DNA of 64,000 nt, taken from NCBI RefSeq assembly GCF_022045235.1, contig NW_027266319.1, positions 34,968,001-35,032,000 of the forward strand. Reading direction: 5' to 3'. The notes beneath the pieces are model-generated. The model saw only the letters and a program-made list of their open reading frames with translations. It did no database searches and was not told the DNA's origin. Shown one piece after another: positions 3,941 through 42,123 of this stretch. A program made the translations under genes and the position numbers. Positions within the stretch are counted from its first letter, which is position 1. Each line of letters starts with the position of its first letter. The DNA comes from Haliotis cracherodii (Eukaryota).

Positions 3941-4213
3941 TGAGTGAGTGAGTGAGTTGGGTTTAACGCCGCTTTTAACAGTATTCTAGTTATATCACGG
4001 CGTGTAAGCTTAATGTGGGAGGAAAGCCATGTCTCTGACGTTTTCCACTTCGGTGAAACCCCCGAGCACGGGAATGGTGCTGACAAACCTAGAAACATAA
4101 TCGGGGCGAACCGGGATTCGAACCCAAAATAATAGGTTTGTGGCGTGCCAGAGGGACGCAACGCTGCACAGCGAATCGCGACGCCTTAGACGACTGGGTC
4201 ACCCGTGTCCCCG
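3941..4213 (-). mobile_element. tRNA-derived SINE, family A, (ACTC)n tail
   Basis: Reverse complement of the 5901-6181 copy; A/B-box-like head, (TGAG)n at 3941. Confidence 0.85.
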
Positions 4214-5258: not shown

Positions 5259-5365
5259 GGACCCGTTCCACAAAGCGATCTTAGTGCTACGACTGTCGTA
5301 AGTCAGTGTTAAAGAATGGGAGTTACGACCGACTTAGCGCTAAGATAACTTTGTGGAACGGGGCC
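5259..5365. mobile_element. MITE, PIF/Harbinger-like
   Basis: TIRs GGACCCGTTCCACAAAG / CTTTGTGGAACGGGGCC, flanked by CAG on both sides; second copy at 43114. Confidence 0.75.
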
Positions 5366-5900
5366 CAGGTCCAAATGAGGAGACTGACTAGAGCCTGACG
5401 TCTATTAATTCGACACACTGGGGTTCGAGTTCGAGATAACGAGGTTCACAATCATATAGACGTTCATAATAAAATGTATCGGCGCCATAGTAAATTATAC
5501 AACGTTGATGAATTATCCAGGTGATTTTAAGGATGAACATACTGTGTTTTCAATATTGGTATTGATGCTACATATTGGTAACCTGTAGGTTTAACCGCGC
5601 TATTTTAACATTTGAAACCTAACTCTGCACGTTCAGTTCCAAATTCAATACAGCACGGTTAAATCTACAGTCAACCTACAGTAGCCCTACATTGACACAC
5701 AATGTGTTTATCGCGATTCTATAATGATTAAATGTGACGCGAACGCATTGGTGCTAGCGAAGAGACATTGAGCTTTGGTTCTGTCCAACGTCTTGAAAAT
5801 GTTGTCGACTTGAATTGTCCTGTTGTGAATTGAATACACTGATACTACTGTAGAAACCAATTTTGGTGCTGGTGTGTATTTGTACTTCATAATAGTGTGC

Positions 5901-6181
5901 GGGGGCACGGGTGGCCCAGTCGTCTAAGGCGCCGCGATTCGCTGTGCAGAGTTGCGTCCCTCTGGCACGCCAGAAACCTATGATTGTTGGTTCGAATCCC
6001 GATTCGCCCCGATTATGTTTCTAGGTTTGTCAGCACCATACCCGTGCTCGTGGGTTTCACCGATGTGGTTAACGTCTGAAACCTGCATTACTTCGTGCTT
6101 TCCACCCACATTAAGCTTACACGCCGTGATATAACTGGAACATTGTTAAAAGCAGCGTTAAACCCAACTCACTCACTCACT
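5901..6181 (+). mobile_element. tRNA-derived SINE, family A
   Basis: GGGGCACGGGTGGCCCAGTCGTCTAAGG head, GGTTCGAATCC B box, (ACTC)n tail, TSD CATAATA(G/C)TGTGC at 5888-5900 and 6182-6194. Confidence 0.9.
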
Positions 6182-6642
6182 CATAATACTGTGCTCACAT
6201 ATGAACAGGCATTGAACGTGTGTAGCACAGCAACTTCGTTCCCCAACACGCGTTGAGTGTGTGAACCTCAAGAGAAAAGAGAAAATCTTGCAAGTTTAGT
6301 TCTACACATACACCGCACGCCACTATTACGACGTCAAGACGCTCAGTGTAACGTGAGTAACACTCTCTCAGTCGATTTCTTTCGTGTTAACTGTACACAT
6401 ACCGTGACTATTGTAGTCAGTGTACATTGTTATTTATATGTCTACCAACAATGACCAGAAACAAGCACCTTTCTACGAAGGATATGGCCATCGAATCGGC
6501 TGTTGCAATCAGAGGTGGATATTGTCATCCAATACTTCTGAATCAGAATTGACTAATTTCCAAATTCATGGTACATTACTGCTTTACCAAAGAATTAATC
6601 TCAATGGAATCACTAAAACACACGCAATATGTTTATTACCAG

Positions 6643-6894
6643 GGAACATCGCTCTGAACAAACAAACACAACAAAGCGGCACTATCAATGACTGTAAGTG
6701 GGCGAGTACAGCCGCCAAGAGAGACGTGTGTGGGGACAAGACTTCCTCCCTGGCTGTGGACGGTGTGACCAGCAGCAGGTACTGGTCAGGGACCTGCACA
6801 CACACCGCGCCAGGCCGGACACCCGCCTGGTGGACAGTGTATCTGGGAGAGACACACCTCATCACCAATCTCACAATATTCTTTTCAACTCCAA
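6643..6894 (+). CDS. Gene 1 F-type lectin exon a
   Basis: ccag|[14 protein letters not shown]...AVDG...[18 protein letters not shown]...; needs GC donor gcaagt at 6895 for phase 1. Confidence 0.85.
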
Positions 6895-9800
6895 GCAAGT
6901 ATTATTAACACACTCTACAGTAATGAATCACGACTGACCCCTCTAATAATGTTCCATAAAAAAACCAAGAGGAATAATATACAACCAAATGGAAACTGAA
7001 ATACTCTATTAATACTTTTGTAAAAAACTGGTCACGGTTGTTGGGGACATATGATTGGAATATTACCAATTACTAATTTTTTCGATAATGATTGACAGTG
7101 TGCAGTTTCCGTTTAATTTATTTACCAAATGTTTATTCTGTGAGTGTGCTAATCGCAATGATGGTGATCATCGCATTGTCACAGGACTAGTCGTACGACA
7201 AAACAACACCGTCAATGTTTCACTGGTAAGATCCCTTGATCTTATTGACGTTAAATAAATGTACTTCCCTTGAAACATACACAGGGTTAACCAGACAGTT
7301 AGTTTTCGATTCAGTCGACATCGATTACCATGTTATACCCTCGTGTTGACGCCTTCATTTATATTGGATTTGTTTTGTCTCCAGGACGAATGAGAGGTTT
7401 CTTGGTCGTTGTAGACAACAACCTCTGCTATCAACAGAGCCAGTACTACCCTCCCAGCTCCCCTGTCAGCATCAACTGTGACACCCCTACACGTGGACAA
7501 CGTGTCACTGTTCTGCTGCCAACACTGAATGGCTCGGAGTACATTCTCAATCTGTGTGAAGTGGAAATATATGGTAATGGACGCATATTAAGGTTTTCCT
7601 AATTTGACATACACTTAGATCAAATAGGATGTTTTGTGTGATCAGCCATGTCTTGGGAACTTGAAGTTTACTTATGTGGCAATCATAGCAATTTTATAAT
7701 ATTTAAATGTGTTTTATATTCATTTACATTAAAATACTAATCAAAAGTTGTTTCTCTTATCAGAGTGTGCTGACGGGAGTTTCGGGCCTGGGTGTAGTTC
7801 CTGGTGTTCCTGTAGGAACACATCCGAGGCGTGTGACAAAGCCACTGGACACTGTGAGAGTGGCTGTGCTGACGGGAGTTTCGGGCCTGGGTGTAGTTCC
7901 TGGTGTTCCTGTAGGAACACATCCGAGGTGTGTGACAAAGCCACTGGACACTGTGAGAGTGGGTGCGTTGACGGGTATGCTGGGACTGGATGTCAGGAAA
8001 GTAAGTGCATGTTGCTTCATCTTCCAACCCATGACGTATTTATTATGTTAAGAAGTGTGTAAAATTAAAAGAGATGGGTCAGGGCTGGAATTGAAATATC
8101 TGTTTTGTGTTATTTCACCCATGCTTCAAAACATTTCATTGTGATGCCCTACAAGGTCCTGCAATGTCGTTACAGCTTGTTCCCCGGGACGCTATGGCCA
8201 GGGATGCATGGAGACGTGTGGACATTGTGATGGAGGGGATCGGAACTGTGACGAGGTAGATGGGCGCTGTACCCGTGGCTGTCAGGACAAGTGGAGTGGA
8301 ACATTGTGCAAAGGTTTGTATCAAGACTTTGATCCGACACCTTGGTGTCTTGGAATTGCTTGTGCTGAGCCTAGTACCAGGCCAGGCAGACATGGGGAAT
8401 TGCCCTACATTACACGATCTAGTCACACAATTACTTCAGACATACATTTCATGTTGGTTTACTGGAGTGGTTTAGTTATTATTATACATCTAGTCCTGCA
8501 CTATGACCGTGGATTATATTTATTTTATGAAAAAAATAATAATCTAGAAACGCATACAAAAGCAAGTCTACCCAGCCCAAGCTAGCTCTATTCTACTCTG
8601 AAATCAGCATAGGGAATATTTATTTTATTTTTAGAGTCAACACCTCGTTTGTCCGTCCGTCCGTAATCATTTCATTTCCAGAGCACAACTCAAAAACCGT
8701 TCAATATCTTTCAACAAAACTTGGCAGATATATCACACAATTGCTGAAGTGGTGACTTTTGCTATTTGCGATTTTTTTGGCATTTTTATTTATCGATTTT
8801 CATGGATTCAATTTGGACTTAGTCTGAAAAGGGTCGGGGTAGGTGTCGTTTTCGGATCACAACTTGAAGACGGTGAACGACTTTTCGTCCTTAGCTGAAA
8901 CGGAGGTAGGTGTCATTTTTCATCCAAACCTGGTACATGTTTTAATCAAGGCCTGAAGTGGTGCTTTTTGCTGTTTAGGAATTTACAAAATATTTTTTTT
9001 ACTTTGTGTATGACTGGACCATATCTCTTAAACTAATAGGTATTCTTTCTTGAAACTGTGCACACACAAAGACCAGGTTGCCAAACGGTGCCATGTGCTA
9101 CTTTGGGGTGTTTCGAATTTATATTTTTTCCGTTTCCATGGCAACAAGTTTGACTTTGAGTCTGTTCATAGTGGCGTGTACCTGACATAGAAATACAAAG
9201 TTCCGAATCCCAATTCCATGGTATTGTTTTTATAGCTCAAGAACTACTCTTGTATACGGACAGACAGATTAGATAGAAATTCTCTCATCAAGTTGGACTT
9301 AAAGTAACAGTCAGATGATTTGTTCTTTCGAATTTGCGGGGGACAGGGGAATTTGTCATCTTCTGATGACTCTTGTTTACAATGGTTGGGTGATTCCGCT
9401 TGTAGGCATCAAGGGATGCAGGACAACACACACTGTTGCTCAGAGATATAAGGACTGCTCTGATTTCAGTATAACCACTTTTGGTGACTTACAACAGGAA
9501 CCTTACTGTATGATATGTAATGACACTGACACGGATGAATAGTGGAATAATTATTGTCCCAATAAACAAGAACCCATAACACATTTTTATATTTTGTTGG
9601 GTTGAAAAAACTTAACCTTAAAAATAAACCCTTTACAAGACTTCCCGTAGTCTCGTGGAGTGTTGACTGTTATGTCTTGTCTTTACAAGACCTCTTAATG
9701 AATGTTTATTGTGATGTATTTTTCCAGAGTGCAGTGACTATTGGTTTGGTGGCCGATGTGACAGAGAGTGTAAATGTAAGGAGACTTATGAAGTGTGTGA

Positions 9801-12800
9801 CAAGAAGACAGGTCAGTGTGACTCTGGGTGTGAAGATGGATGGACAGGACTGGACTGTCAAACACGTGAGTAGTGCAGTCGGGGTGATCACCTCCAGATG
9901 TCAAACCCATGTATCATATGGTTATGATGTGTACGTACAATGTAGAGTTGCAGTCACAACAATCTTCAAAGCATGTGTGACAGTACGGAATGAGCGGAAA
10001 ACATGATGGATATTGACTGAGAGAGCATATTTCAGATATTGAGAAAACTGAGAGCATTGCTGTTCTCGATATCCGACTATGACGTCATATCTATTAGGTC
10101 ACAATGAGCGATGTGACGTCATAATATTGGCATGCGGTAAATCTTGCGTCCTGTCGTTGTTCCATTCGTTGTAATTATCAGCAGAAATTTTAAACTGAAA
10201 GATGACAATACCAGATCACATTGTGCGCAGGTCGTCACCGATTATCTCCGACGAGAAGGCATACGGACATTGCACAGGCCCGCTATGTCCCCTGACATGT
10301 CCCCAATAGAGCATCTTTGGGGTGTTCTTGGGCAGAGACTGTACACCATAAAAAATCATCGGTGTTTCCTTAATTCAAATTGACAACCATCAACCTACAG
10401 GCAACATAGCTCTACATTGAAAACGCAGTATGTTTCTCTCCTAGTTAACAAGCGTGTGATATATCTATTGTACATCATATGAGTAGCTGTGAAGATAATG
10501 ATATCATCATAAAACATAATGATTTGTTACATTATCATAATGAACTCTCAGCAGTTGTTGTGATCTCAGAATCTGAAAGAAAGATTGGGTTCCTGACACA
10601 CCTACAGGTTCAATACCAAAATTAGACTAAGATTTAGTCCCAGAAATGAAGTTATCATCTTTAAAACATATATCTACAAAATAGAAAATAATGATATCCA
10701 AATGGAGTCCAGCACAATGATTAATTTCAGGAGCTGAGGCCATCTAGACTTGCCCAATCATTCTAGTTGGTTGGTTGGTTTGTTGTTTAACGCCGCACTC
10801 AGCAATATTGCAGCCATATGACGGCGGTCTGTAAATAATCGAGTCTGGACCAGACAATCAAGTGATTAATATCATGAGCATCGATCCACGCAAATGGGAT
10901 CGATGACATGCATCAACCAAGTCAGCGAGCCTGACCACCCGATCCCGTTAGACGCCTTTTACGACAAGCATAGTCACCCTTTACGGCAAGCATAGTCACC
11001 CTTTACGGCAAGCATGGGTCGCTGAAGACCTATTCTACCCCGGAATCTTCACGGGTCCCAATCATTCTAGACTTGAGTTGTACAAAATATGGAATGCAAG
11101 CGATTTCGTTGACCAAACAAGCACAGTGATTCATAGTGGGTTCACGTGTAAGAGTAACATATGCATCATTTAACGGTGTCGGATATTTGAACATATTACC
11201 TTGGGAGAAAAATGGCAAGATGATGTTAACCGTCTCTCATGCAATGGGTTTTTCACCAACATTTCCTAAACAGGGAATCCGTGCCACAGTGGACACAAAG
11301 TCGTCCGGGAGTGAACAATCATTAGCACATGTACACGTGTTGCTAAACGTAGGGCATGTAGCAACACACTGCAGTCAAACTAACAACAGCTGTACATACC
11401 CAGCTGTACTTCCTCTGCCATGTTTGGCCCACGGTGACGCCATTACACTCCCCAAATCGCCTTATTGCTACACGGACATATGGATAATCACCCACTGAAC
11501 TGATATCACAATGAGACTTATTTAACCCTAAACGACCTAAACAACGTAACTGAGCTGGCAGTTTGATGGAACAGCCTGTTCGAGAATTTTCAGTTGAAGA
11601 ACACCCTTGTAACGAATTTGATTTCAAACCTATCCCCAAATGTACACAAGGTTAGTCTCAAATTTGGCATCTTATAAAAGTAATAAAGTTTGCTCTACCC
11701 CTGCGTTTAGTGTAATAAAGTATAGTTTTGCCCTGAACTATTTCAACGTCAACGCACTAGGAGGCATGTTTTTTCGTGCTTTAACCATAGGGTTCACTTC
11801 ACAGCGTGTCAGGACGGGACCTACGGCTTCAACTGTAAATCCAGGTGTGGGAGATGTCGGGATGGAGTGCCATGTGAAAAGATAGGAGGAGAGTGTGCCA
11901 AGTGTGACCCAGGATTCATGACCCCGCTCTGTCAAGGTAAGGAGACATTAACAAAGTGCTGCAATACTTTTAATCCCAGTTACATGCTAGAAAGGTTTCA
12001 AACCTACAAACCACTCTTTAGCGTTTCAACTTACATGTGTGTGATTCGCGTGTTTAAGATTGTCTCAGACTCGACTCCAAAACGGAAAAATGATCAGGAA
12101 ATATCGGAAAGACATGTTTTGGGAATAAATACTCACAAGATGTTGAATAAGATCACGATGCCTTTGTGTCCAATAAACAGATGATAAACAGTAGTCGACC
12201 TTTTCATTGTGCCTTGCCCCCTCCATGTTTTAATTCACCGGCAGCAAACAATCATTTATTCTTTTTTTAACACATGTAAGCTTTTGAATGTTGCCGATTT
12301 TCTTTTTCACTCCCCGACCTTTTTTTAGAGTGTAAAGACAAAAGCTTCAGCCCAAATTGTAGTCGGCAATGTCGCTGTAAGAACACAAGCGAGGTATGCG
12401 ACAAAACCAGCGGAGACTGCAGCAGTGGTTGTAGAGATGGATGGACAGGGGGCGGCTGTCTGAAACGTAAGATCAAAATGACATTAATCAATTCAATCTT
12501 ACACCGAATATGTCGGGAAAGGATATTTCAACAGAAAGTCATTCATAGCTAATTAACTCTGAAACACTTTTTTGTGTAATAAAATAACAGTCGCATGCTG
12601 GAGAGGAGTGGGTTTGTACAAGTCAGATGCGAGTGATACATGAAATGAGTTCAAGGTCTGTTATATTTATTACATACACACTTGTGTTCACTGTAACCAC
12701 TGTGTCATGTTGTACCCCACAGCATGTCCCAGGGGACGCTATTGGTTCTAGAGTAGATATGTGTGTGTGGCCAGTGTAAGGGAGGTAACCACTGTGTCAT

Positions 12801-15800
12801 GTTGTACCCCACAGCATGATCCAGCGGACGCTATGGTTCCAGTGTGGGTGTGGGTGTGGTCAGTGTAAGGGAGGTAACCACTGTGTCATGTTGTACTCCA
12901 CAGCATGATCCAGCGGACGCTATGGTTCCAGTGTGGGTGTGGGTGTGGTCAGTGTAAGGGAGGTAACCACTGTGTCATGTTGTACCCCACAGCATGATCC
13001 AGCGGACGCTATGGTTCCAGTGTGGGTGTGGGTGTGGTCAGTGTAAGGGAGGTAACCACTGTGTCATGTTGTACTCCACAGCATGATCCAGCGGACGCTA
13101 TGGTTCCAGTGTGGGTGTGGGTGTGGTCAGTGTAAGGGAGGTAACCACTGTGTCATGTTGTACCCCACAGCATGATCCAGCGGACGCTATGATTCCAGTG
13201 TGGGTGTGGGTGTGGCCAGTGTAAGGGAGGTTACCAGTGTGTCATGTTGTACCCCACAGCATGATCCAGCGGACGCTATGGTTCCAGTGTGGGTGTGGGT
13301 GTGGTCAGTGTAAGGGAGGTAACCACTGTGTCATGTTCTACCCCACAGCATGATCCAGCGGACGCTATGGTTCCAGTGTGGGTGTGGGTGTGGTCAGTGT
13401 AAGGGAGGTAACCACTGTGTCATGTTGTACCCCACAGCATGATCCAGCGGACGCTATGATTCCAGTGTGGGTGTGGGTGTGGCCAGTGTAAGGGAGGTAA
13501 CCACTGTGTCATGTTGTACCCCACAGCATGATCCAGCGGACGCTATGGTTCCAGTGTGGGTGTGGGTGTGGCCAGTGTAAGGGAGGTAACCACTGTGTCA
13601 TGTTGTACCCCACAGCATGATCCAGCGGACGCTATGATTCCAGTGTGGGTGTGGGTGTGGCCAGTGTAAGGGAGGTAACCACTGTGTCATGTTGTACCCC
13701 AAAAACATGATCCAGCGGACGCTATGGTTCCAGTGTGGGTGTGGGTGTGGTCAGTGTAAGGGAGGTAACCACTGTGTCATGTTGTAACCCACAGCATGAT
13801 CCAGCGGACGCTATGGTTCCAGTGTGGGTGTGGGTGTGGTCAGTGTAAGGGAGGTAACCACTGTGTCATGTTGTACCCCACAGCATGATCCAGCGGACGC
13901 TATGATTCCAGTGTGGGTGTGGGTATGGCCAGTGTAAGGGAGGTAACCACTGTGTCATGTTGTACCCCACAGCATGATCCAGCGGACACTATGGTTCCAG
14001 TGTGGGTGTGGGTGTGGTCAGTGTAAGGGAGGTAACCACTGTGTGACGTTTTTACCCCACAGCATGATCCAGCGGACGCTATGGTTCCAGTGTGGGTGTG
14101 GGTGTGGTCAGTGTAAGGGAGGTAACCACTGTGTCATGTTCTACCCCACAGCATGATCCAGCGGACGCTATGATTCCAGTGTGGAGGTGTGTGTGGCCAG
14201 TGTAAGGGAGGTAACCACTGTGTCATGTTGTACCCCACAGCATGATCCAGCGGACGCTATGGTTCCAGTGTGGGTGTGGGTGTGGTCAGTGTAAGGGAGG
14301 TAACCACTGTGTCATGTTGTACCCCACAGCATGATCCAGCGGACGCTATGGTTCCAGTGTGGGTGTGGGTGTGGCCAGTGTAAGGGAGGTAACCACTGTG
14401 TCATGTTGTACTCCACAGTATGTCCCAGCGGGCGCTATGGCTTCCAGTGTGGGTGTGGGTGTGGCCAGTGTAAGGGAGGTAACCACTGTGTCATGTTCTA
14501 CTCCACAGCATGATCCAGTGGACGCTATGGTTCCTGTGTGGGTGTGGGTGTGGTCAGTGTAAGGGAGGTAACCATTGTGTCATGTTCTACCCCACAGCAT
14601 GTTTCAGAGGACGCTATGGGTTCCAGTGTGGGTGTGGGTGTGGCCAGTGTAAGGGAGGTAACCACTGTGTCATGTTCTACCCCACAGTATGTCCCAGCGG
14701 GCGCTATGGGTTCCAGTGTGGAGGTGTGTGTGGCCAGTGTAAGGGAGGTAACCACTGTGTCATGTTCTACCCCACAGCATGTCCCAGCGGGCGCTATGGC
14801 TTCCAGTGTGGAGGTGTGTGTGGCCAGTGTAAGGGAGGTAACCACTGTGTCATGTTCTACCCCACAGTATGTCCCAGCGGGCGCTATGGCTTCCAGTGTG
14901 GGTGTGGGTGTGGTCAGTGTAAGGGAGGTAACCACTGTGTCATGTTCTACTCCACAGTATGTCCCAGCGGGCGCTATGGCTTCCAGTGTGGGTGTGGGTG
15001 TGGCCAGTGTAAGGGAGGTAACCACTGTGTCATGTTCTACTCCACAGCATGATCCAGTGGACGCTATGGTACCTGTGTGGGTGTGGGTGTGGTCAGTGTA
15101 AGGGAGGTAACCATTGTGTCATGTTCTACCCCACAGCATGTTTCAGAGGACGCTATGGGTTCCAGTGTGGGTGTGGGTGTGGCCAGTGTAAGGGAAGTAA
15201 CCACTGTGTCATGTTCTACCCCACAGTATGTCCCAGCGGGCGCTATGGCTTCCAGTGTGGAGGTGTGTGTGGCCAGTGTAAGGGAGGTAACCACTGTGTC
15301 ATGTTCTACCCCACAGCATGTCCCAGCGGGCGCTATGGGTTCCAGGGTGGAGGTGTGTGTGGCCAGTGTAAGGGAGGTAACCACTGTGTCATGTTCTACC
15401 CCACAGTATGTCCCAGCGGGCGCTATGGCTTCCAGTGTGGGTGTGGGTGTGGTCAGTGTAAGGGAGGTAACCACTGTGTCATGTTCTACTCCACAGTATG
15501 TCCCAGCGGGCGCTATGGCTTCCAGTGTGGGTGTGGGTGTGGCCAGTGTAAGGGAGGTAACCACTGTGTCATGTTCTACTCCACAGCATGATCCAGTGGA
15601 CGCTATGGTACCTGTGTGGGTGTGGGTGTGGTCAGTGTAAGGGAGGTAACCATTGTGTCATGTTCTACCCCACAGCATGTTTCAGAGGACGCTATGGGTT
15701 CCAGTGTGGGTGTGGGTGTGGCCAGTGTAAGGGAGGTAACCACTGTGTCATGTTCTATCCCACAGCATGTCCCAGCGGGCGCTATGGCTTCCAGTGTGGA

Positions 15801-30800: not shown

Positions 30801-33800
30801 TAACGCCGAACTCAGCAATATTCCGTCTGTCTGTAAAATAATCGAGTCTGGACGAGACAATCCAGTGATTAATATCATGAGCATCGATCCACGCAATTGG
30901 GATACGATGACATGCATTAACCAAGTCAGCGAGCCTGACCACCCGATCCCGTTAGTAGCCTTTTACAAGCATAGTCACCTTTTACGGCAAGCATGGGTTG
31001 CTAAAGACTACCCCGGAATCTTCACGGGTCCACGAGTAGGGGAACCTCGAAGGCGTTGGGGTTTAATTGGTCACACAGTAGGTTACATGATCTCTTACAG
31101 ATGACCACTCCCGCGTTGTCCTGCAGAAGATCCCTGGGGACAAGAACTCCGACTACATCAACGCCAACTACATCAGCGTATGTCTCTCTTATCATTAATG
31201 CTGGCATATTTAAGTACACATCTCTGCTGTAAGAAAGCATTCTGAATAACTGTGCTGGTATGTGTTGTTGGTATTACAGCTAGTAGTGTCTGGAATGAAA
31301 GGAATAATTAATCGGATACAAAAATTAAGAAAATTAAGAAAAAACTTTTATCAAAATATCATTTTGCATAAATATGAGTGTCATTGTAGGGGTGGAACGT
31401 AAAGGGCGATACAATGATTTATGATATGTATAATTGTACACAGACCTACAAGAGGAAGAAGGCCTTTATTGCAACTCAAGGTAAGCTTAAAAGCTCCTGA
31501 CTTTACCTTATAATCATAATAGTGGAGACATGTTGCTACTTTGGTCTAATATAATGTTTATTTCATGAACTAGTCTGGTAATTTATAGGGGCGGTCGGGT
31601 AGCCTAGTGGTTAAAGCGTTCGCTCGTCACGCCGAAGACCCGGGTTCGATTCCCAACATGGGTACAATGTGTGAAGCCCATTTCTGGTGTCCCCCGCCGT
31701 GATATTGCTGGAATATTGCTAAAAGCGGCGTAAAACCAAACTCACTCACTCACTCACTGGTAATTTATAAAACATTGACCACACATTGTATTTATCTTAA
31801 ACCTAAAAAGCAAATCACAAGCATGTTTTTTTTTAGCAATATCCAATCTATATAAAGGCGGTTTTAAATAATCGATTCTTGACCAAACAATCCAATGATT
31901 AATATCATGAGCATCGATCCATGAACTTGGGATACGATGACATGCATCAATCAAGTCAGCGAGCCAGACCCCCCGATCACGTCAGTCGCGTTTTACAACG
32001 TTTGTTCAATAACGTCATTGTCGTAGAACATAATTCGACATAATGGAAGGATTAGAATGTCCTGTTACCAGTTGAAAATAACATTGTTATTATGTTCGTA
32101 AGGTCCAATGCCGAAGACTGTGGGCGACTTCTGGAGGATGGTGTGGCAGGAGGAGACCAACATCGTCGTCATGCTCACCAGACTCAGGGAGGGGATAAAG
32201 GTGATGCTGCTGCTCAAGCATCTAAATGTTGTCACTTTCTCCTCATTCCTAAATACCCCTAAACATGACTTTTTAATCAGAACACAACTATGTAATGTTG
32301 GCTTTAAATTTAATATTTGTTCCGGAAAATGACACCGGGGAGCAATGTAAACAGGATGGCATAATGATTCAAAACGTTAACGCCAGATAATATTCCGCAA
32401 TCTCAACTGAAAGAGTTTCCATTGGCCAGATGCCATGATTATCTATGATGGTCCTGCTGTGTCTTTGTGTTGATTTTAATGGAGAAGTAGTAATGGAAAC
32501 CCGGAATGTCTATGTGTGTGTTGCTGTGAATGTCAGTGTATTTGTGTTTATTGCTGTGAATGGCGGTGTATACATGTGTGTGTTGCTGTGAATGTCAGTG
32601 TATGTGTGTGTCTGTGTTGCTGTGAATGTCAGTGTATGTGTGTGTTGCTGTGAATGTCGGTGTATATGTGTGTGTGTTGCTGTGAATGTCAGTGTATGTT
32701 TGTGTGTTGCTGTGAATGTCGGTGTATATGTGTGTGTTGCTGTGAATGTCAGTGTATGTTTGTGTGTTGCTGTGAATGTCAGTGTATGTGTGTGTGTTGT
32801 TGTGAATATCAGTGTATGTTTGTGTGTTGCTGTGAATGTCAGTGTATGCGTGTGTTGCTGTGAATATCAGTGTATGTGTGTGTGTTGCTGTGGATCGCGG
32901 TGTATTTGTGTGTTGCTGTGAATGTCAGTGTATGTGTGTGTTGCTGTGAATGTCGGTGTATATGTGTGTGTTGCTGTGAATGTCAGTGTATGTTTGTGTG
33001 TTGCTGTGAATGTCGGTGTATATGTGTGTGTTGCTGTGAATGTCGGTGTATATGTGTGTGTTGCTGTGAATGTCGGTGTATGCGTGTGTTGCTGTGAATG
33101 TCAGTGTATGTTTGTGTGTTGCTGTGAATGTCAGTGTATGTTTGTGTGTTGCTGTGAATGTCAGTGTATGTTTGTGTGTTGCTGTGAATGTCGGTGTATG
33201 TTTGTGTGTTGCTGTGAATGTCGGTGTATATGTGTGTGTTGCTGTGAATGTCAGTGTATGCGTGTGTTGCTGTGAATGTCAGTGTATGTTTGTGTGTTGC
33301 TGTGAATGTCGGTGTATATGTGTGTGTTGCTGTGAATGTCAGTGTATGTTTGTGTGTTGCTGTGAATGTCGGTGTATATGTGTGTGTTGCTGTGAATGTC
33401 AGTGTATGCGTGTGTTGCTGTGAATGTCAGTGTATGTTTGTGTGTTGCTGTGAATGTCGGTGTATATGTGTGTGTTGCTGTGAATGTCAGTGTATGTTTG
33501 TGTGTTGCTGTGAATGTCGGTGTATATGTGTGTGTTGCTGTGAATGTCAGTGTATGCGTGTGTTGCTGTGAATGTCAGTGTATGTTTGTGTGTTGCTGTG
33601 AATGTCGGTGTATATGTGTGTGTTGCTGTGAATGTCAGTGTATGTTTGTGTGTTGCTGTGAATGTCAGTGTATGTTTGTGTGTTGCTGTGAATGTCAGTG
33701 TATGTTTGTGTGTTGTTGTGAATATCAGTGTATGTTTGTGTGTTGCTGTGAATGTCAGTGTATGTTTGTGTGTTGCTGTGAATGTCAGTGTATGTTTGTG

Positions 33801-36800
33801 TGTTGTTGTGAATGTCAGTGTATGTTTGTGTGTTGCTGTGAATGTCAGTGTATGTTTGTGTATTGTTGTGAATGTCAGTGTATGTGTGTGTTGCTGTGAA
33901 TATCAGTATATGTGTGTGTTGCTGTGGATGGCGGTGTATTTGTGTGTTGTTGTGAATGTCAGTGTATGTGTGTCTGTTGCTGTGAATGTCAGTGTATGCG
34001 TGTGTTGCTGTGAATATCAGTATATGTGTGTCTGTTGCTGTGGATCGCAGTGTATTTGTGTGTTGCTGTGAACGTCAGTGTATGTGTCTGTTGCTGTCAA
34101 AGTCAGTGAATGTCAGTGTTGCTGTCAACGTCAGTATATGTATGTGTTGCTGTGAATGTCAGAGTATGTGTGTGTCTGTGTTGCTGTGAATGTCAGTGTA
34201 TGTGTGTGTTGCTGTGAACGTCAGTACATGTGTGTGTTGCTGTGAACGTCAGTGTATGTGCGTGTTGCTGTCAACGTCAGTGTATGTGTGTGTTGCTGTC
34301 AACGTCAGTGTATGTGTGTGTTGCTGTGAACGTCAGTGTATATGTGTGTTGCTGTGGATGTCAGTGCATGTGTTGCTGTTTATGTCAGTGTATGTGTGTG
34401 TGTTGCTGTTTATGTCAGTGTATGTGTGTGTTTCTGTGAATGTAAGTGTATGTAAGTATGTTGCTGTGAATGTCAGTGTAGTTTTGCCTTGCTGTGAATG
34501 TCAGTGTCTGTGTTGCTGTCAATGTCAGTGTATTTGTGTGTTGTTGTCAATGTCAGTGTATATATGTTTCATGGTGTGGATGGCGATGTATATGTGTGTG
34601 TTGCTATGAATTTAGTGTATTTTGTTTATTGCTGTGGATGGCGGTATATGTGTGTTGCTGTGAAAGATTTTGTATGTGTTTTTGTTGCAGGTGAAATGTG
34701 AGAAATACTGGCCGGAGAGGAACAATCCACTGCAGCTTGCAGACCTGACCATCACAAACGACGGGGTCGTTGAGAGACCGGACTACTGCATCAGACAGAT
34801 GATCCTCCAGCACAAGAAGGTTCTCACCACCACAACATCGTATACTTTACCCCTATAGGCTGTGTCCCCTGTGCCCCATGCTTGCCACGAGAGCCTACCA
34901 GAGAGGTTAAAGTGTGTGACCTGGCTGTGTGTCATCTTATACATTAACCCTATAGGCCGTGTCCCCTGTACCCCATGCTTGCCACGAGAGCCTACCAGAG
35001 TGGTTAAAGTGTGTGACCTGGCTGTGTATCATCTTATACATTACCCCTATAGGCCGTGTCCCCCGTACCCCATGCTTGCCACGAGAGCCTACCAGAGTGG
35101 TTAAAGTGTGTGACCTGGCTGTGTATCATCTTATACATTACCCCTATAGGCCGTGTCCCCTGTACCCCATGCTTGCCACGAGAGCCTACCAGAGTGGTTA
35201 AAGTGTGTGACCTGGCTGTGTGTCATCTTATACATTACCCCTATAGGCCGTGTCCCCTGTACCCCATGCTTGCCACGAGAGCCTACCAGAGTGGTTAAAG
35301 TGTGTGACCTGGATGTGTATCATCTTATACATTACCCCTATAGGCCGTGTCCTCTGTAACCCATGCTTGCCACGAGAGCCTACCAGAGTGGTTAAAGTGT
35401 GTGACCTGGCTGTGTGTCATCTTATACATTACCCCTATAGGCCGTGTCCCCTGTGCCCCATGCTTGCCACGAGAGCCTACCAGAGAGGTTAAAGTGTGTG
35501 ACCTGGCTGTGTGTCATCTTATACATTAACCCTATAGGTCGTGTCCTCTGTAACCCATGCTTGTCAATAGAGCATACCAGGATGGTTACAATATGTTACC
35601 TGGCTGTGTATCATCTTATACATTACCCCTATAGACCGTGTCCCCTGTACCACATGTTTGTCAATAGAGCCTACCAGGATGGTTACAATGGGTGACCTGG
35701 CTGTGTATCATCTTATACCTTATCCCTATTGACCAGATCTTTTGTACCCCGGGCTGGTCAATAGAGCCTACCAGGATGGTTACAATATGTGACCTGGCAG
35801 TGTATCATCTTCCTGGACGACTTGGAGTCATTATACTGTGTCTGATTGGGGTATCTCTAAAAACCGGCATTACTCTGGACTAGTACAAGCAGCACCCTAT
35901 CCACACCCCGCAACCGCACCCCGCACCCCGCACCCCGCACCCCACACGTGTAGCACGTCGCTAAATAAGCGCAATGATCTTGAATCCGACCTACCAACCT
36001 ATTCCCTAGTGTATATAATCATTTACTGAACGGGTTCAGTTATCTATTCAGAGAGACATTATGAATATGTTTTATGAATATGCAGATTATGTTCCGTTAT
36101 AGCTGAACGAGCGCCGTCAAGTGATGCAACTGCACTATGTCACGTGGCCGGACCATGACGTCCCATCAACCCCTCAGCTCGTCCGGTTCTGGAAGGTGTT
36201 CCGGTCAATGACGGCTGACGGCCAGGCTCCCGTCGTCGTTCACTGCAGGTTTCCAAATTAACTTACACCATCTTATAAACTGATCCATTCGAAATCTGAT
36301 CATATGAAGACTGATGTGTTTACGTGTGTGTTGATTTTGTGTGAAAAATGCATCACCCTCAACAGATAATAGGGAAGATGTGATAGCATGGTGGCTAAGT
36401 TTGTTCGTCAGTTTCAAGACACAGATTTAATTCCCTAAATGGTGCAAGAAGTGAAGCTTTCGTTGTGTCCTCCGTCATGTAATTTCCTTGATTCTTTTAT
36501 GCAAATTATGTTAGTGACGTGTGACACATGGTGTCATCCCTGATTTTCAGTGATCCATTCTTGTTGTTTTCACCACAGTTTTGCCTTTGTGATCCTATCT
36601 AATCTGTTTCGGCGGATACTCGAGACCGACTATTCTCTGGCATTGACGTTTTTTATACATTTGATACTGCTAAAATCACAATTACTGACTCACTCAGTGG
36701 TACTCACACGAGGGACCCTTCACTTCCCCATGTATGCAGTCGCCCTGAGAAATGTGTTTATTTCCAGTGCTGGAGTTGGGCGGACAGGGACGTTCATTGG

Positions 36801-39800
36801 ACTCGACGCGATGATGGAGCGGGCTAGGCAGGAAGGAGTGGTGGACGTCCATGACTTCGTCCTCAAGATGAGAGCTGACCGGGTCAGCATGGTGCAGACA
36901 AAGGTCAGACAGAGATCGCGCGTGTCCGTTGTTATTGGTGACAGTCACTGAAGTAGAAGTTAACAATAACTGATTATTATTCCAAAACCACAACTTAATA
37001 TAGTCCTGAACCACACATACATCGCATGTCAATAGTGCAAGAAAAATAACATTCTTTGATGTTTTACATCTCTAAAATGCACATTCCCTCTGAATTGCAA
37101 AGAAAAACGCAGTCGTCCCGTGAATGTTTGATCTTCTGGAGGGACATGTACGTGGAGGGGCATATTACGTTTCTGTGCCTCGATTTAACGAAACATGCGT
37201 GACTCAATTGCAGCAAATACCTGTCGCCTCATTTGTAATGTGATCGCTTCCGACATTGCTGAGCTATTCTACACATAACATTATATAATTTCGGTTTCCC
37301 TGAATACATCTTCGTCAGTGATGAAATTCCCGTCCCGCCATGTCTCCTCCTTCCCCCAGGAGCAGTACCTGTTTCTCCACCAGGTGGTGCTGGAGGCGCT
37401 AAACAGCGACATGACACACATGACGCCCGCCATGTTTGACAGAAGGTTCAGCACCGAGAACATGGCTTCTGCACCAGAGGAGGCCATCTTGAAAAGAGAA
37501 TGGGAGGTAAGGCATGGCCTTTGAACAACACTGCCCTTCGCCGACATTGACAATATGCCCTTCAGTGAGGGATTAGGATTTACACCGATACTTCCCTTCA
37601 CTACAAGCCACTATCGGCACATTAACGAATTCAACATTACGACTTCCTAGCTTCCATCATTTACTTTCAATGACATATTTTGGGCGAAATTTAGATATAT
37701 CTTGTGACCCGTTCGCTGACAGCCAGTGTGGCGATATAAGTATGCATGTTGTCAAGGTATGTCCATACTGTCCGGCTAGCCGATATGGATGTTTTGCACA
37801 AGGCAGTGCCCGGCCAAAGGAACCTGCAGGAGAATAAAGATAAATTTCCTTTACGAACAGAAATAAACCACACTCAACCTTACCTGCTTCTATTTTTCAG
37901 AAACTCGTTGAATTGAAAGCAGAATTGGCTGCCTCTGAAACCGAGGGTGCTCTTCTGACAGAAAACACGCGGAAAAACCGTAGCAAGGACATTCTGCCAG
38001 GTACCATTTTTCCTGCCATGTGTAATATGGCAAATAGACCTGTGATGTTATCCACACAAAAAGTGTATACTATATACTAAAATATGAAAACATATGCTTG
38101 TATTAATTCACTAATGAGATTTTAGCGGGTCGTTTATATCAAGACTACAAGTATTCAAAAAATATGTTTTGAAGGTTATTTTGGATGTATTAAACATGTA
38201 TTAACTTAATTATATATACATGATGAGTTGATTGTAACATAGTAAATTACACGGGGTATCAGTTCTGATTATTACTTTAAAAGTTGAGTTTGATCAGTAT
38301 TATTACAGTCAGATCTCTTAGCTTCTAGGTTTGATTATCCTAAATAATGGAAGAAGTATCATTGAAAAACGTCAGTGAAAACTCATGATATCATGTCAAT
38401 GTGTTCGTTATTACGGTACACACAGAGAATCTGGTTCAGAACATCTTCACTCACCACTCGCGTCTTATTTAGCTGAGTATAGGTGAGCTTCTGTACCTCT
38501 GACACGTACGTTGTATTCTGTGTACCACTGTCTTGTTCCTTTTCGTCTGAGAATGGCGATTGTATGATTTCATGTTGGGAAATAAGGAAGATACACAGAA
38601 TTGCACCTTCTGTTCACCCTAACTATATAGTATGCATAGTATCTGACAAAACCACAAGATAAATTTCTTAAATTACCTAAATTTTAACTTCCTATATATA
38701 TTCTTTCAGCTGATAAATGCCGGCCGATCTTAAGTCTTCCAGTTGCCGGAAGTAACGATTACATCAACGCAGTATTTGTCCCTGTAAGTACGATGCTCTT
38801 GTCAAAGATTCAGTTGGTACAAGTAGATTCAGTTGGTAAAAGTAGATTCAGTTGGTACAAGTAGATTCAGTTGGTAAAAGTAGATTCAGTTGGTACAAGT
38901 AGATTCAGTTGGTACAAGTAGATTCAGTTGGTATCGCGTAGGGTATTGAAAGAATCTGTATAAATTAACAGTAATATTATTAAGTTATGGTAATATCTGA
39001 AACAACGGATCTCGTTTGACACAATGACATAAGTAAAGATGTAGACAGTAATGAAATAGCCCTTTTGGTGTCCTTTCACATTATCAGTGTATCCTTCTCC
39101 TTATATATGTTCCTCATCCACGCCCTTACCCTGACAATGTTTTTAACAGTATTTTAACACATACCTTGTAACATATACAAGTCTCAGTGTCTCCTTACTC
39201 TAACACGTGTAATACTGTAAAACATAGTAAATACAGCAATGTGTCCTTACTCTGACACGTGTAATAATGTAAAACATAGCAAGTTCCCCAGTAGAGCAAT
39301 GTGTCCTCTTACTCCAACACGTATTTCAACATTACCTTACTTGAACACGTATTCCAACTCCTCCTTACTCCAACACGTATTTCAACGTCCCCTTATTCGA
39401 GCACGTATTTCAACGTCCCCTTACTCCAACACGTATTTCAACGTTTCCTTACTCCAACATGTGTTTCTACGTCCCCGTGCTGCAACACATATTTCAGCGT
39501 CCTCTTACTTCAACCTTCAACACGTATTTCAACGTTCCCTTACTCCAACACTTATTTCAACGTCCCCGTACTCCAACACATATTTCAGCGACCCCTTACT
39601 TCAACACATATTTCAGCGTCCTCTTACTCCAACACATATTTCAGTGTCCTCTTACTTCAACCTTCAACACGTATTTCAACGTTCCCAAACTTCCCTCCTT
39701 ACTCCAACACCTATTCCAACTCCTCCTTACTCCAACACGTATTTCAACGTCTCCCTAGTCCAACACGTATTTCAACGTCTCCCTAGTCCAACACGTATTC

Positions 39801-42123
39801 CAACGTCCCTTACTCCAACACGTATTTCAACGTCCCCTTACTCCAACACGTATTTCAACGTCTCCCTAGTCCAACACGTATTTCAACGTCTCCCTAGTCC
39901 AACACGTATTCCAACGTCCCTTACTCCAACACGTATTTCAACGTCCCCTTACTCCAACACGTATTTCAACGTTTCCCTAGTCCAACACGTATTTCATCGT
40001 CCCCTTACTCCAACACGTATCTCAACGTCTCCTTACTACCAACACGTATCTCAACGTCCCCTTACTCCAACACGTATTCCAACGTCCCCTTACTCCAACA
40101 TGTATCTCAACGTCCCCTTACTCCAACTCGTATTCCAACGTCTCCTTACTCCAACACGTATCTCAACGTCTCCTTACTCCAACACGTATCTCAACGTCCC
40201 CTTACTCCAACACGTATTCCAACGTCCCCTTACTCCAACACGTATCTCAACGTCTCCTTACTCCAACACGTATTCCTTACTGTACATCCTGTCTCAATGT
40301 CTGTGTGTAGACGGAGACCCGTCAGAAAGGCCTCCTGGCCACACAGCTGCCTCTGCCCTGGACTGTGGTGGACTTCTGGAGGATGGTCTTGGACCACAAT
40401 GTGCAGACCATCGTGTCTCTCGTCTCAGAGGAGTGTTCATCACAGGTAACTCAGCTGCGAGTCCTGTGGGCTCGAGGCCGTGTCGGTGCCCGCTGACTGT
40501 TTGACCATGAAAATTGTGGACCAGTTGTCAATACGTTCTCGTATTGATTCCAAACTTATGCTCGAGATTTCCGAATAAATGACATTTTCCAAAAAAAATA
40601 ATTTTAAGTAAAATATTTTTTGGATCTTAATAATATTTATTCTGTCTGGGTTATTCTGTGCTATCCCTTTTGGTATTTTATCTACAGGGGTTACGGGTGG
40701 CCCAGTCGTCTAAGGCGCCGCAGTGTACTGTTGCGTCCGTCATACTTATGACTGTAGGTTCGAATCCCGGTCCCCCCCGATTATGTTTCTAGGTTATTCA
40801 ACACCATACCCGTACGTGCTCGTGTGTTCCACGAAAGTGGTAAACGTCTGAGACCTGCATAACTTCGGGGTTTCCTCCCAAATTAAGCTGTCACGCAATT
40901 ATAGAATAGGAATCCTGTTCAAAAGGGCGTTAAATCCAACTCACTCACTCAACCTTATCCGCATAATATAACTTAGCCTTTCAAGTGGAGCCACACCTTG
41001 CCTTACTGAACACATAACATACATCTACTACCAGGTCGACGAAGCCCACGTTTGGCCTAAGACAGATGGGGTTTTGGAGTGTGGACCATTTCTTGTCAAG
41101 AAGACGGAATCAAAGGACAAGGCTATAGTTTTGCGAGTCTGGTTAAAGGTATGCAATATAAATTCCAGTACCTTATCGCTACTGAACACCCAGGAACATA
41201 AATAGACGCCATCACAAACATACAGCCACAACTAGATACACACATGGTTGATGCCATTCCTGGTGCCACAACATTATTTAATTCTATTTAATGTCGAATA
41301 GCAACAGTTTGCCAACTCGTGGTTTATACATTTCTGTGTCTCCCAGAACGCTGAAGAGAGCACCGAAAAGGATGTCACCTTGCTGTTTGTGAGTGACTGG
41401 ATAGAGGGAGTGGACACGCCTACAAATACGTCACAGTTCCTGTGCTTCATCAACGACCTTGACGCCCGGAACACCTCCGACAACATCGCCGTCATGTGCA
41501 TGTAGGTTAAGTCCGTCGCCGTCCATCTGATATTAAACAATGAATCGAAAGTATCCGGAGTAAAATTTTCAAATTAAAATGTTTGCAATGTGAATGCGTT
41601 TTGTTATTAAGGCGTTGTTTGTGTGTTAAATAACTGTAAGAGTACGGGGTATACGCAATACTGGAATTGTTACCTCGTATTCTAGGGATGGTGCCAGCAA
41701 GTGTGGATTGTTATGTGCTGTGCTGAACATCATCCAACAACTGAAGCAAGACCAGGTGATCGACGTGTATCTGACAGTCAGAATCCTGCAGACAGTCAGA
41801 CCAAACTTCCTGACATCCTATGTGAGTATCTGACAGTCAGATTGCTACAGACAGTCAGACCCAGTCCTGACATCCTATGTGAGTATCTGACAGTCAGATT
41901 GCTGCAGACAGTCAGACCAGCTTTCTGATCATCTCATGATCGACATGTTTTGTAACACGAGGTTTTTAGGGCACGTTCACCCCGTTTTCTCAAGGGTGAA
42001 ACACATCTGGCATATATAACATGTACGTCTCTCTGTCTACAGGCACAGTACCAGTTCTGCTACAGGATGGTTAAGGAACATCAGAAGACCATCAACTCTG
42101 TGTATGAGAACTTCCAGAGATAG
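6643..42123 (+). CDS. Gene 1: receptor-type protein tyrosine phosphatase with N-terminal F-type lectin domain, ~15 EGF-like repeats, TM, PTP D1 and D2 (34 coding exons; signal-peptide exon not located)
   Basis: Exons joined at AG/GT sites total 4418 nt (2 + 1472 codons incl. stop), frame closes without internal stop; motifs NIAL..AVDG..CTHT..WW..LCEVEIY, 8-Cys EGF exons, hydrophobic [30 protein letters not shown]. Confidence 0.9.
7385..7573 (+). CDS. Gene 1 F-type lectin exon b
   Basis: [16 protein letters not shown]...[10 protein letters not shown]; 189 nt, AG/GT. Confidence 0.9.
7764..8000 (+). CDS. Gene 1 EGF exon with internal 99-bp duplication (~2 repeats)
   Basis: [34 protein letters not shown] x2; 237 nt, phase 1-1, gtaagt donor. 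Confidence 0.9.
8176..8313 (+). CDS. Gene 1 EGF exon
   Basis: [20 protein letters not shown]...WSGTLCK; 138 nt, phase 1-1. Confidence 0.9.
8630..9378. mobile_element. Non-autonomous Helitron/Helentron-like (pearl/DINE-type) element
   Basis: T-rich start, (GTCC)n microsatellite, internal degenerate repeats, 3' hairpin GTCATCTTCTGATGAC then TCTTGTT; shorter copy at ~17283-17780. Confidence 0.55.
9728..9865 (+). CDS. Gene 1 EGF exon A
   Basis: [46 protein letters not shown]; 138 nt, gtgagt donor. Confidence 0.9.
10141..10345 (+). pseudogene. Tc1/mariner transposase fragment
   Basis: KDDNTRSH...[14 protein letters not shown] matches the DD34E C-terminal motifs; copy at 18579. Confidence 0.8.
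10767..11056 (-). mobile_element. SINE family C (Meta-domain-like core, head-less)
   Basis: TSD CCCAATCATTCTAG at 10753-10766 and 11057-11070; at least six other copies in window. Confidence 0.85.
11805..11936 (+). CDS. Gene 1 EGF exon B
   Basis: [43 protein letters not shown]; 132 nt, gtaagg donor. Confidence 0.9.
12329..12466 (+). CDS. Gene 1 EGF exon C
   Basis: [46 protein letters not shown]; 138 nt. Confidence 0.9.
12693..16191 (+). repeat. 89/90-bp minisatellite (~39 units) built from splice acceptor + first 60 nt of EGF exon D; 539-bp higher-order repeat in 3' half
   Basis: Unit GTAACCACTGTGTCATGTTCTACCCCACAG|CATGTCCCAGCGGGCGCTATGG...AAGGGAG; ORF starts at 14510/15049/15588 are 539 apart. 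Confidence 0.95.
16126..16263 (+). CDS. Gene 1 EGF exon D (last unit of the array plus unique 3' half)
   Basis: [45 protein letters not shown]; 138 nt, gtaaga donor. Confidence 0.85.
18166..18303 (+). CDS. Gene 1 EGF exon A' (duplicate of 9728-9865)
   Basis: [46 protein letters not shown]; 138 nt, open, AG/GT intact. Confidence 0.8.
18579..18753 (+). pseudogene. Tc1/mariner transposase fragment (duplicated copy)
   Basis: KDDNARPH...[15 protein letters not shown]. Confidence 0.8.
18763..19226 (+). repeat. Short (~5 unit) version of the 89/90-bp acceptor/exon array
   Basis: Same unit as 12693-16191; acceptor AGs at 18981, 19070, 19160 among others. Confidence 0.9.
19161..19298 (+). CDS. Gene 1 EGF exon D' (duplicate of 16126-16263)
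   Basis: [45 protein letters not shown]; 138 nt. Confidence 0.8.
20325..20462 (+). CDS. Gene 1 EGF exon E
   Basis: [46 protein letters not shown]; 138 nt, gtgagt. Confidence 0.9.
20430..21182 (+). repeat. 77-bp minisatellite (~10 units) made of exon E 3' end + donor site
   Basis: AGGCAGGCAGAACAGGGAGGGGCTGTCAGCAAT|GTGAGT... donor G at 20463, 20540, etc. Confidence 0.95.
21707..21844 (+). CDS. Gene 1 EGF exon F
   Basis: [45 protein letters not shown]; 138 nt. Confidence 0.9.
22767..22904 (+). CDS. Gene 1 EGF exon G
   Basis: [46 protein letters not shown]; 138 nt. Confidence 0.9.
23317..23451 (+). CDS. Gene 1 EGF exon H
   Basis: [45 protein letters not shown]; 135 nt, gtgagt. Confidence 0.9.
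23424..24298 (+). repeat. ~50-bp minisatellite (~17 units) made of exon H 3' end + donor site
   Basis: GGGTGGACGGGGCAGAGATGTGACGTAG|GTGAGTGACCTGTAGTCAGGGA repeated. Confidence 0.95.
25694..25834 (+). CDS. Gene 1 EGF exon I
   Basis: [47 protein letters not shown]; 141 nt. Confidence 0.9.
26096..26236 (+). CDS. Gene 1 EGF exon J
   Basis: [47 protein letters not shown]; 141 nt. Confidence 0.9.
26302..27522. repeat. 75-bp intronic minisatellite, ~16 units
   Basis: GACCTATGGTAGCTTGGTCTGTCTGGCAAATGTAAC... period 75. Confidence 0.95.
27748..28318. repeat. 83-bp intronic minisatellite, ~6 units
   Basis: GGAGAATATGGAGACGACG at 27810, 27893, etc. Confidence 0.9.
28377..28476 (+). CDS. Gene 1 transmembrane exon
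   Basis: [34 protein letters not shown]; phase 1-2, followed by basic RRQQRK. Confidence 0.9.
28515..28800. repeat. ~53-bp AT-rich degenerate tandem repeat
   Basis: AAACAGTTTACGGCATC...AATATTACAATT recurs ~5 times. Confidence 0.8.
29097..29161 (+). CDS. Gene 1 juxtamembrane exon 1
   Basis: [21 protein letters not shown]; phase 2-1, gtgagt. Confidence 0.85.
29327..29480 (+). mobile_element. tRNA-derived SINE, family B
   Basis: tRNA-like head, (ACTC)n tail, TSD CATTACGGGG at 29317-29326 and 29481-29490. Confidence 0.85.
29639..29868 (+). mobile_element. SINE family A (internal deletion)
   Basis: Same head and tail as 5901-6181. Confidence 0.85.
29927..30057 (+). CDS. Gene 1 juxtamembrane exon 2
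   Basis: [44 protein letters not shown]; phase 1-0. Confidence 0.85.
30360..37506 (+). CDS. Gene 1 PTP D1 domain: exons 30360-30447, 31101-31177, 31444-31480, 32103-32200, 34691-34819, 36103-36248, 36768-36903, 37360-37506
   Basis: [74 protein letters not shown]. Confidence 0.95.
30786..31030 (-). mobile_element. SINE family C
   Basis: Homologous to 10767-11056; TSD CACGAGTAGG at 30776-30785 and 31031-31040. Confidence 0.85.
31588..31756 (+). mobile_element. tRNA-derived SINE, family B, full length
   Basis: TAGCCTAGTGG A box, GGTTCGATTCC B box, (ACTC)n tail, perfect TSD CTGGTAATTTATA at 31575-31587 and 31757-31769. Confidence 0.9.
31833..31997 (-). mobile_element. SINE family C, partial
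   Basis: ATCATGAGCATCGATCC...CAAGTCAGCGAGCC core. Confidence 0.75.
32505..34690. repeat. ~30-bp GT-rich satellite running up to the acceptor of a PTP exon
   Basis: TGTGTGTTGCTGTGAATGTCAGTGTATGTT repeated ~70 times, homogeneous centre, degenerate ends. Confidence 0.95.
34843..35812. repeat. 97-bp minisatellite, ~10 units
   Basis: ORF starts at 34862, 34959, 35056, 35153... spaced 97. Confidence 0.95.
37901..42123 (+). CDS. Gene 1 PTP D2 (pseudophosphatase) and C-terminus: exons 37901-38000, 38710-38783, 40311-40445, 41035-41148, 41347-41501, 41686-41821, 42043-42123
   Basis: [53 protein letters not shown], ends SVYENFQR* (TAG 42121-42123). Confidence 0.9.
38806..38932. repeat. 19-bp tandem repeat, ~7 units
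   Basis: AGATTCAGTTGGTACAAGT repeated. Confidence 0.9.
39305..40280. repeat. ~29-30-bp C-rich satellite
   Basis: CCTTACTCCAACACGTATTTCAACGTCC repeated. Confidence 0.95.
40686..40950 (+). mobile_element. SINE family A
   Basis: GGGTGGCCCAGTCGTCTAAGGCGCC head, GGCGTTAAATCCAACTCACTCACTC tail. Confidence 0.85.
41767..41925 (+). repeat. 57-59-bp tandem duplication (~2.8 units) of D2 exon 3' end + donor
   Basis: GTATCTGACAGTCAGA at 41767, 41826, 41883; ACATCCTAT|GTGAGT twice. Confidence 0.9.

Follow-up and report, generated by a model that had tools for sequence, protein, structure and literature searches.

The question raised by this locus is whether a single gene of the abalone Haliotis cracherodii joins a lectin-like extracellular head to tandem tyrosine phosphatase (PTP) domains and, if so, what such a receptor would recognize and how it would signal. 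The window analyzed here is a stretch of 64,000 nucleotides (contig NW_027266319.1, positions 34,968,001 to 35,032,000), and all genes and exons described below lie on its forward (+) strand. From a six-frame reading and splice-site coordinates, 34 exons at 6643..42123 were spliced into an open frame of 1470 codons with 0 internal stops, ending in a TAG codon at 42121-42123. The exons were picked by eye, and the openness of the 34-exon frame is partly by construction. The frame as originally predicted is nevertheless borne out by RefSeq protein XP_071081758.1 (P0016, Haliotis cracherodii; currently named 'uncharacterized'), which is identical at 1378/1378 residues to the 32 exons of the model that remain when exons 7 and 8 are left out. 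Introns are of the GT-AG type in 32/33 cases, intron 1 being GC-AG; a GT donor at 6899 was rejected for exon 1, since it breaks the phase, and the GC donor matches RefSeq instead. RefSeq protein P0016 also carries 60 additional N-terminal residues, comprising a hydrophobic leader (a putative signal peptide) and a first EGF-like unit, for which no match was found in window positions 1-6642, indicating that the gene starts upstream of the window, that the leader exon lies outside it, and that the model is 5′-incomplete. A hydrophobic open reading frame starting near 3080 was discarded as a candidate signal-peptide exon for the same reason.

The encoded domains follow the order of a lectin-fold head (exons 1-2), an EGF stalk, a transmembrane (TM) helix, a juxtamembrane segment, and the phosphatase domains D1 and D2. 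Exon 1 (6643..6894, with the GC donor) encodes the first half of an F-type-lectin-fold head, including the AVDG cation motif, a His52 equivalent, and a Ser at the Arg79 position, while exon 2 (7385..7573) encodes the second half, with the Arg86 equivalent and a CEVEIY end. The TM helix, recognized by hydropathy, resides in exon 17 (28377..28476) and spans model residues ~831-853; it is followed by juxtamembrane exons 18-19 (29097-29161, 29927-30057) containing a basic stop-transfer stretch and an acidic Y-x-N motif. When 36 exon pieces were compared with Pfam, exon 1 passed PF22633, and 7/14 pieces from the PTP region matched PF00102. The locus is confirmed as a real gene, and the proposal of one receptor in which D1/D2 and a TM helix are joined to EGF repeats under a lectin-fold head is upheld.

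The stalk is built of MEGF/SCARF-type EGF units, beginning with exon 3 (7764..8000), which encodes one short and one full unit and contains an internal 99-nt duplication. Single units follow in exon 4 (8176..8313), exon 5 (9728..9865), and exon 6 (11805..11936), as well as in two intact candidate exons left out of the RefSeq models, namely, exon 7 (12329..12466) and exon 8 (16126..16263), the latter a near-copy of exon 10. Exons 9-16 (18166..26236) also carry one unit each, at 18166-18303, 19161-19298, 20325-20462, and 21707-21844 (exons 9-12) and at 22767-22904, 23317-23451, 25694-25834, and 26096-26236 (exons 13-16). All 14/14 EGF exons are phase 1-1, and the Cys pattern recurs exon by exon. 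Pfam EGF-type matches are weak for individual exons, with 6/14 at E<=0.05 and one, exon 5 (PF00053), above the cut-off. Judged by these Cys-repeat exons and by its one hydrophobic helix, the protein has the MEGF-type repeats and single TM helix of the molluscan receptor PTPs discussed below. The ~15 repeats originally proposed are recovered in the 34-exon model (14 full units and one short), but 13 units is the better-supported count, because both RefSeq models of this locus leave out exons 7 and 8 and nothing in the Haliotis rufescens orthologue closely matches exon 7. Six RefSeq isoforms of that orthologue differ in their EGF exons.

Transcript-level continuity was considered using contigs from four Logan runs, taken by guess to be RNA and compared with positions 16300-32400 only, a stretch that begins past exon 8. 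At least eight joints appear among the matches listed: spliced joints or adjacent pieces were found for exons 10-11, 11-12, 12-13, 13-14, 15-16, 19-20, 20-21, and 21-22, with contributions from 4/4 runs. In run X2, exons 15-16 sit on a contig of 2085 nt with a depth of 9.64, the same value as that of the joints 19-20 and 20-21 in this run, and this contig extends 1751 nt past exon 16, compared to 1732 nt for exons 17-32. Based on the equal depth and the fitting length, this contig likely bridges the EGF and PTP exons, with the proviso that placing these joints on the same contig is our inference and that a contig does not amount to one molecule. The head-to-EGF joint rests on the RefSeq models and on exon phase.

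The first phosphatase domain, D1, is encoded by exons 20-27 (30360..37506), located at 30360-30447, 31101-31177, 31444-31480, and 32103-32200 (exons 20-23) and at 34691-34819, 36103-36248, 36768-36903, and 37360-37506 (exons 24-27). It aligns along its full length with D1 of PTPRS and has all of the catalytic motifs, including the HCxxGxGR loop, the WPD loop, the Q loop, and the pTyr-recognition loop, the last in the variant form KNRF rather than KNRY; F occupies this position in 28/61 D1 domains of the family. The second domain, D2, extends over exons 28-34 (37901..42123), at 37901-38000, 38710-38783, 40311-40445, and 41035-41148 (exons 28-31) and at 41347-41501, 41686-41821, and 42043-42123 (exons 32-34, including the C-terminus with a second Y-x-N motif and the stop codon). 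It has MCMDGASKCG in place of the catalytic loop and lacks WPD. Among head-bearing relatives, HCxxGxGR and WPD are each retained in 59/61 D1 domains, whereas HCxxGxGR occurs in 0/45 D2 domains, such that D1 is predicted to be active and D2 to be a pseudo-phosphatase. Both the juxtamembrane and the C-terminal Y-x-N motifs are present in a 37-sequence family consensus. The closest solved PTP structures to the tandem domains are of the LAR type.

What the receptor might bind depends on its head, for which an F-type beta-barrel fold is predicted. The sequence matches solved F-type lectins (3CQO at E 1e-17), the AlphaFold model has a pLDDT of 95.5, and a Foldseek search with this model returned F-type fucose-binding modules in all of the top 11 rows (TM-score 0.71-0.77), including 2J22, 2J1T, 3CQO, and 1K12. 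In the accessible text of PMC5712786, the F-type lectin motif is given as a His/Arg/Arg triad in H...RxDx4(R/K) together with a cation motif, h2DGx. The abalone head has the cation motif (AVDG, although the next residue is Val and not small polar), and alignment to 1K12 indicates that the equivalents of His52 and Arg86 are retained. In the same alignment, Arg79 is replaced by Ser, the loop is 3 residues shorter, and the Asp and the Cys82-Cys83 pair are gone; by lacking Arg79 and the RxD-CC loop, the head falls outside the canonical fucose-binding class despite its predicted F-type fold. Because only two of the three residues classically used to bind fucose are kept, plain fucose is an unlikely ligand. 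The original view of a glycan-sensing receptor is doubtful where fucose is meant, as the canonical motif is missing. An alignment-based count over 82 heads (domains of >=100 residues) from 57 PTP-bearing relatives found the full triad by column in 27/82 and none of its residues in 19/82; the His/-/Arg pattern of the abalone head occurs in 2/82, and the strict motif is matched by 4/82. Since only about a third of heads keep the fucose triad, naming these receptors 'lectin' is unsafe. The abalone head has an additional Arg ahead of the Arg86 equivalent, but it is not conserved in close relatives.

In abalone, divergence is also much faster in the head than in the enzyme. Compared with the H. rufescens orthologue, identity is 81% for the head, 91% for the EGF stalk, 98% for D1, and 97% for D2, and the difference yields a Fisher p of about 1e-10, using counts back-calculated from the percentages. 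Among the variable head positions are those in the loop that follows the His and in the loop that precedes the second Arg, and the head is about equally distant from the orthologue and from paralogues. These patterns fit ligand-driven diversification or gene conversion without proving either; because ectodomains usually drift faster than catalytic domains, 81% versus 98% falls short of proving positive selection.

To place the gene among its relatives, searches were conducted with parts of the protein and with a paralogue. The head exon retrieved 10 abalone proteins among 53 candidates, a search with D1 alone was swamped by LAR/PTPRS sequences, and full HMMER searching with P0006, a paralogue from H. 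rubra, yielded 4186 clusters at E<=1e-30. Among the best 150 of these 4186 clusters, a sample chosen by similarity to the query, 60 combine head, EGF, TM, and PTP, and 44 of those 60 have two PTP domains. H. cracherodii itself has at least five proteins of the family (P0016, P0003, P0140, P0368, and P0371), in line with the proposed membership in an expanded family. The 20 clusters looked up came from oysters, scallops, clams, freshwater mussels, Solemya, abalone, Pomacea, Bulinus, Elysia, and the brachiopod Lingula. These family members are named 'uncharacterized' or kappa/mu/alpha-like, and the expected automatic annotation as MEGF6/10- or PTPR kappa/mu/alpha/epsilon-like is seen in relatives' names. 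In a FastTree phylogeny of D1, all 65/65 head-bearing domains group in one clade apart from LAR-type domains; together with 6/6 Biomphalaria proteins, which had been found via the Bulinus member, they fall within a 108-tip clade of 153 tips (support 0.925), one RPTP-zeta sequence having been left out of the trees because its anchor motif is absent. The architecture is therefore neither new nor abalone-specific, and a lineage-specific exon shuffle, as originally envisaged, is contradicted by one D1 clade spanning bivalves, gastropods, and Lingula.

The closest described counterparts are found in Biomphalaria snails, which carry schistosomes. According to the accessible text of PMC12297450, the Biomphalaria sudanica resistance region SudRes1 encodes single-pass proteins with an extracellular GBD and MEGF and with tandem PTP domains, and the genome contains 14 further proteins of this receptor PTP (RPTP) type; the associated variants are intronic, and a resistant haplotype shows EGF loss. 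In B. glabrata, the same design in the parasite-resistance region LG5R constitutes subgroup 1C of scavenger class F-like receptors, whose ligand is supposed to be a fucose or galactose glycan, and the causal genes of LG5R are stated as not identified (PMC13712769, accessible text). The available portion of PMC13619432 has nothing specific on these receptors. The abalone gene shares with the Biomphalaria proteins a galactose-binding/fucolectin-like head (judged by PF22633 and fold), MEGF repeats, one TM helix, two cytosolic PTP domains, clustered paralogues, and a variable EGF number; the hydrophobic N-terminus of P0016 is a candidate for the signal peptide that belongs to this architecture. 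The SudRes1 and LG5R genes themselves were not picked out among the matches, and the likeness rests on the described architecture and the D1 clade, which points to common descent with the Biomphalaria members. The abalone EGF stalk is longer, and five Biomphalaria proteins with a head keep the His and both Arg residues (by eye), whereas the abalone head lacks the first Arg. Because the abalone gene lies on another sub-branch of the D1 clade, at about 28-32% identity to the Biomphalaria genes, function need not carry over. Moreover, in these sources, the snail link is an association with non-coding variants and unnamed causal genes; the architecture has already been described and tied to parasite resistance genetically but not biochemically. 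The open-access literature searched yielded no biochemical study of a receptor of this kind and no functional one from abalone or oyster, which does not prove that none exists.

Other known systems resemble the abalone receptor in part. F-type lectins (Anguilla agglutinin 1K12, MsaFBP32 3CQO, and the pneumococcal fucose modules 2J1R/2J22) share the predicted fold (TM-score 0.74-0.77), the cation motif, and the His52 and Arg86 equivalents with the head, which differs in lacking Arg79, the acidic residue, and Cys82-Cys83 and in belonging to a membrane-bound, phosphatase-fused protein. The scavenger receptors MEGF10, SCARF1, Draper, and CED-1 likewise have a stalk of tandem Cys-rich EGF-like repeats and cross the membrane with a single helix; they signal via short tyrosine motifs and are not known to carry a phosphatase, and in contrast to them the abalone protein has a lectin-fold head. 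Tandem-domain RPTPs (LAR/PTPRS and PTP-alpha/epsilon) similarly combine an active D1 (predicted in abalone) with a degenerate D2, but the abalone protein lacks their Ig/FN3 ectodomain, belongs to a separate D1 clade, and has KNRF for KNRY. With no Ig/FN3 or MAM match in Pfam on any ectodomain exon, and with D1 outside the LAR-type branch, the protein belongs to neither the LAR/R2A nor the kappa-mu/R2B class.

These observations suggest, with moderate confidence, a surface receptor of haemocytes or epithelia in which a remodeled head would bind a ligand of microbial or cellular origin, probably something other than plain fucose, and D1 would reset tyrosine phosphorylation. The 13-15 EGF units would keep the head away from the membrane, and its pocket, in which the His and one Arg are kept, the Arg79/RxD-CC loop is lost, and nearby loops are variable, likely accommodates a ligand other than simple fucose. 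Ligand binding may cluster or reposition the receptor and thereby change substrate access of D1, with D2 acting as a putative regulatory pseudo-phosphatase. Y-x-N motifs dock SH2 adaptors in the tail of PTP-alpha, and the conserved juxtamembrane and C-terminal copies may do the same here. The net effect would be to set a threshold for responses driven by kinases, for example adhesion, phagocytosis, or encapsulation. A role in immunity is plausible; nothing was found in this analysis to support a role in gamete binding or allorecognition, both of which had been raised by the original prediction.

Several other explanations bear on the same evidence. The head could still serve a true fucose/galactose pattern-recognition receptor, with a neighboring Arg in the shortened loop substituting for Arg79, an unlikely reading that draws on the F-type fold, the retained AVDG, His52, and Arg86 equivalents, the extra Arg before the last of these, and the full triad in 27/82 family heads. 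Sugar binding is also possible for bacterial modules that have only two of the three basic residues (PMC5712786, accessible text). The Ser at Arg79 and the lost acidic residue and Cys-Cys pair argue against this reading, as do the lack of conservation of the extra Arg in close relatives and the scarcity of the His/-/Arg pattern (2/82 heads). Binding of a host protein, whether the receptor itself, a paralogue, or matrix, would instead imply an adhesion or self-marker receptor whose phosphatase acts in cell contact, development, or shell/mantle rather than in defence. RPTPs of the LAR and kappa/mu types serve as adhesion receptors, the nearest solved structures are LAR-type tandem domains, and 19/82 heads have zero triad residues; however, tandem expansion, a variable EGF number, and fast-evolving heads are better suited to a recognition arms race, and the snail association data favor defence, leaving this option unlikely as well.

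It is very improbable that the gene is a chimeric prediction in which annotation fused adjacent lectin-EGF and PTP genes. Lectin-EGF-TM paralogues without PTP do exist (P0005), and RefSeq isoform P0022 begins inside the EGF array, which would fit such a fusion. The locus, however, has one TM exon only, no stop between the EGF and PTP exons, and a likely bridging contig, and the same combination recurs across many species in 60 of the best 150 clusters. In H. rufescens, P0005 has the same head with a short tail and no phosphatase, and the close paralogues P0001/P0014 carry three heads in tandem; this combination suggests paired receptors.

Beyond the surface receptor with a remodeled head favored here, it is possible, though doubtful, that the abalone subfamily has an F-type pocket rebuilt for a non-fucose ligand and diversifying under pathogen pressure, yielding a variable immune-receptor repertoire wired to a phosphatase; variable pocket loops, head multiplication, and EGF-exon skipping would be the routes of diversification. 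If so, the abalone proteins would serve as a model, amenable to biochemistry, of a receptor family that is lophotrochozoan-wide and has snail members in schistosome-resistance loci. The present analysis adds to the snail genetics a family that forms one phosphatase clade over bivalves, gastropods, and a brachiopod, and ligands, if found, would be relevant to snail-schistosome resistance loci and to disease resistance in shellfish.

The gene also contains extensive repeats. Minisatellite sequence, at 12693-41919, accounts for about 33% of the gene span, and 10/11 of the larger arrays checked overlap an exon edge or lie within 60 nt of one, with several consisting of amplified splice-site sequence. 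The array at 12693..16191 comprises about 39 copies, each of 89-90 nt, of the exon-8 acceptor and the 5′ part of that exon; the exact acceptor is found in 27 copies, and the first 20 codons are open in 12 of those. The last 90-nt units share the reading frame of exon 8, so that splicing to an acceptor further upstream would insert repeats of 30 residues that are rich in Cys. In addition, an internal segmental duplication (9374-10325 vs 17775-18757 and 16463-16762 vs 19553-19852; 92-100% identity) copied EGF exons (5 and 9; 8 and 10) together with flanking intron.

Downstream, a paralogous lectin-fold and EGF gene occupies 47041..59533 and continues towards the window end, with approximate exons at 47041-47133, 47853-48095, 48337-48540, 52788-52922, 54112-54348, 55302-55484, 57534-57665, 58779-58910, and 59405-59533. 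No PTP exons of this neighbor were seen within the window. An adjacent antistasin gene is a feature of the Biomphalaria group, and the downstream neighbor seen here is this lectin-EGF paralogue. It encodes two heads, both with degenerate fucose motifs and the second without the His. An assembly gap of 134 N lies at ~48554-48687, just past a head exon of this gene, and one of its introns contains a 964-codon open reading frame (49078-51969) that by eye resembles a LINE retrotransposon protein. SINE-like or tRNA-like high-copy repeats are found at 3900-4500, 5500-6160, and 29300-31900, including an inverted pair upstream of the receptor gene, and SINE-like repeats dominate contig depth in the Logan comparison.
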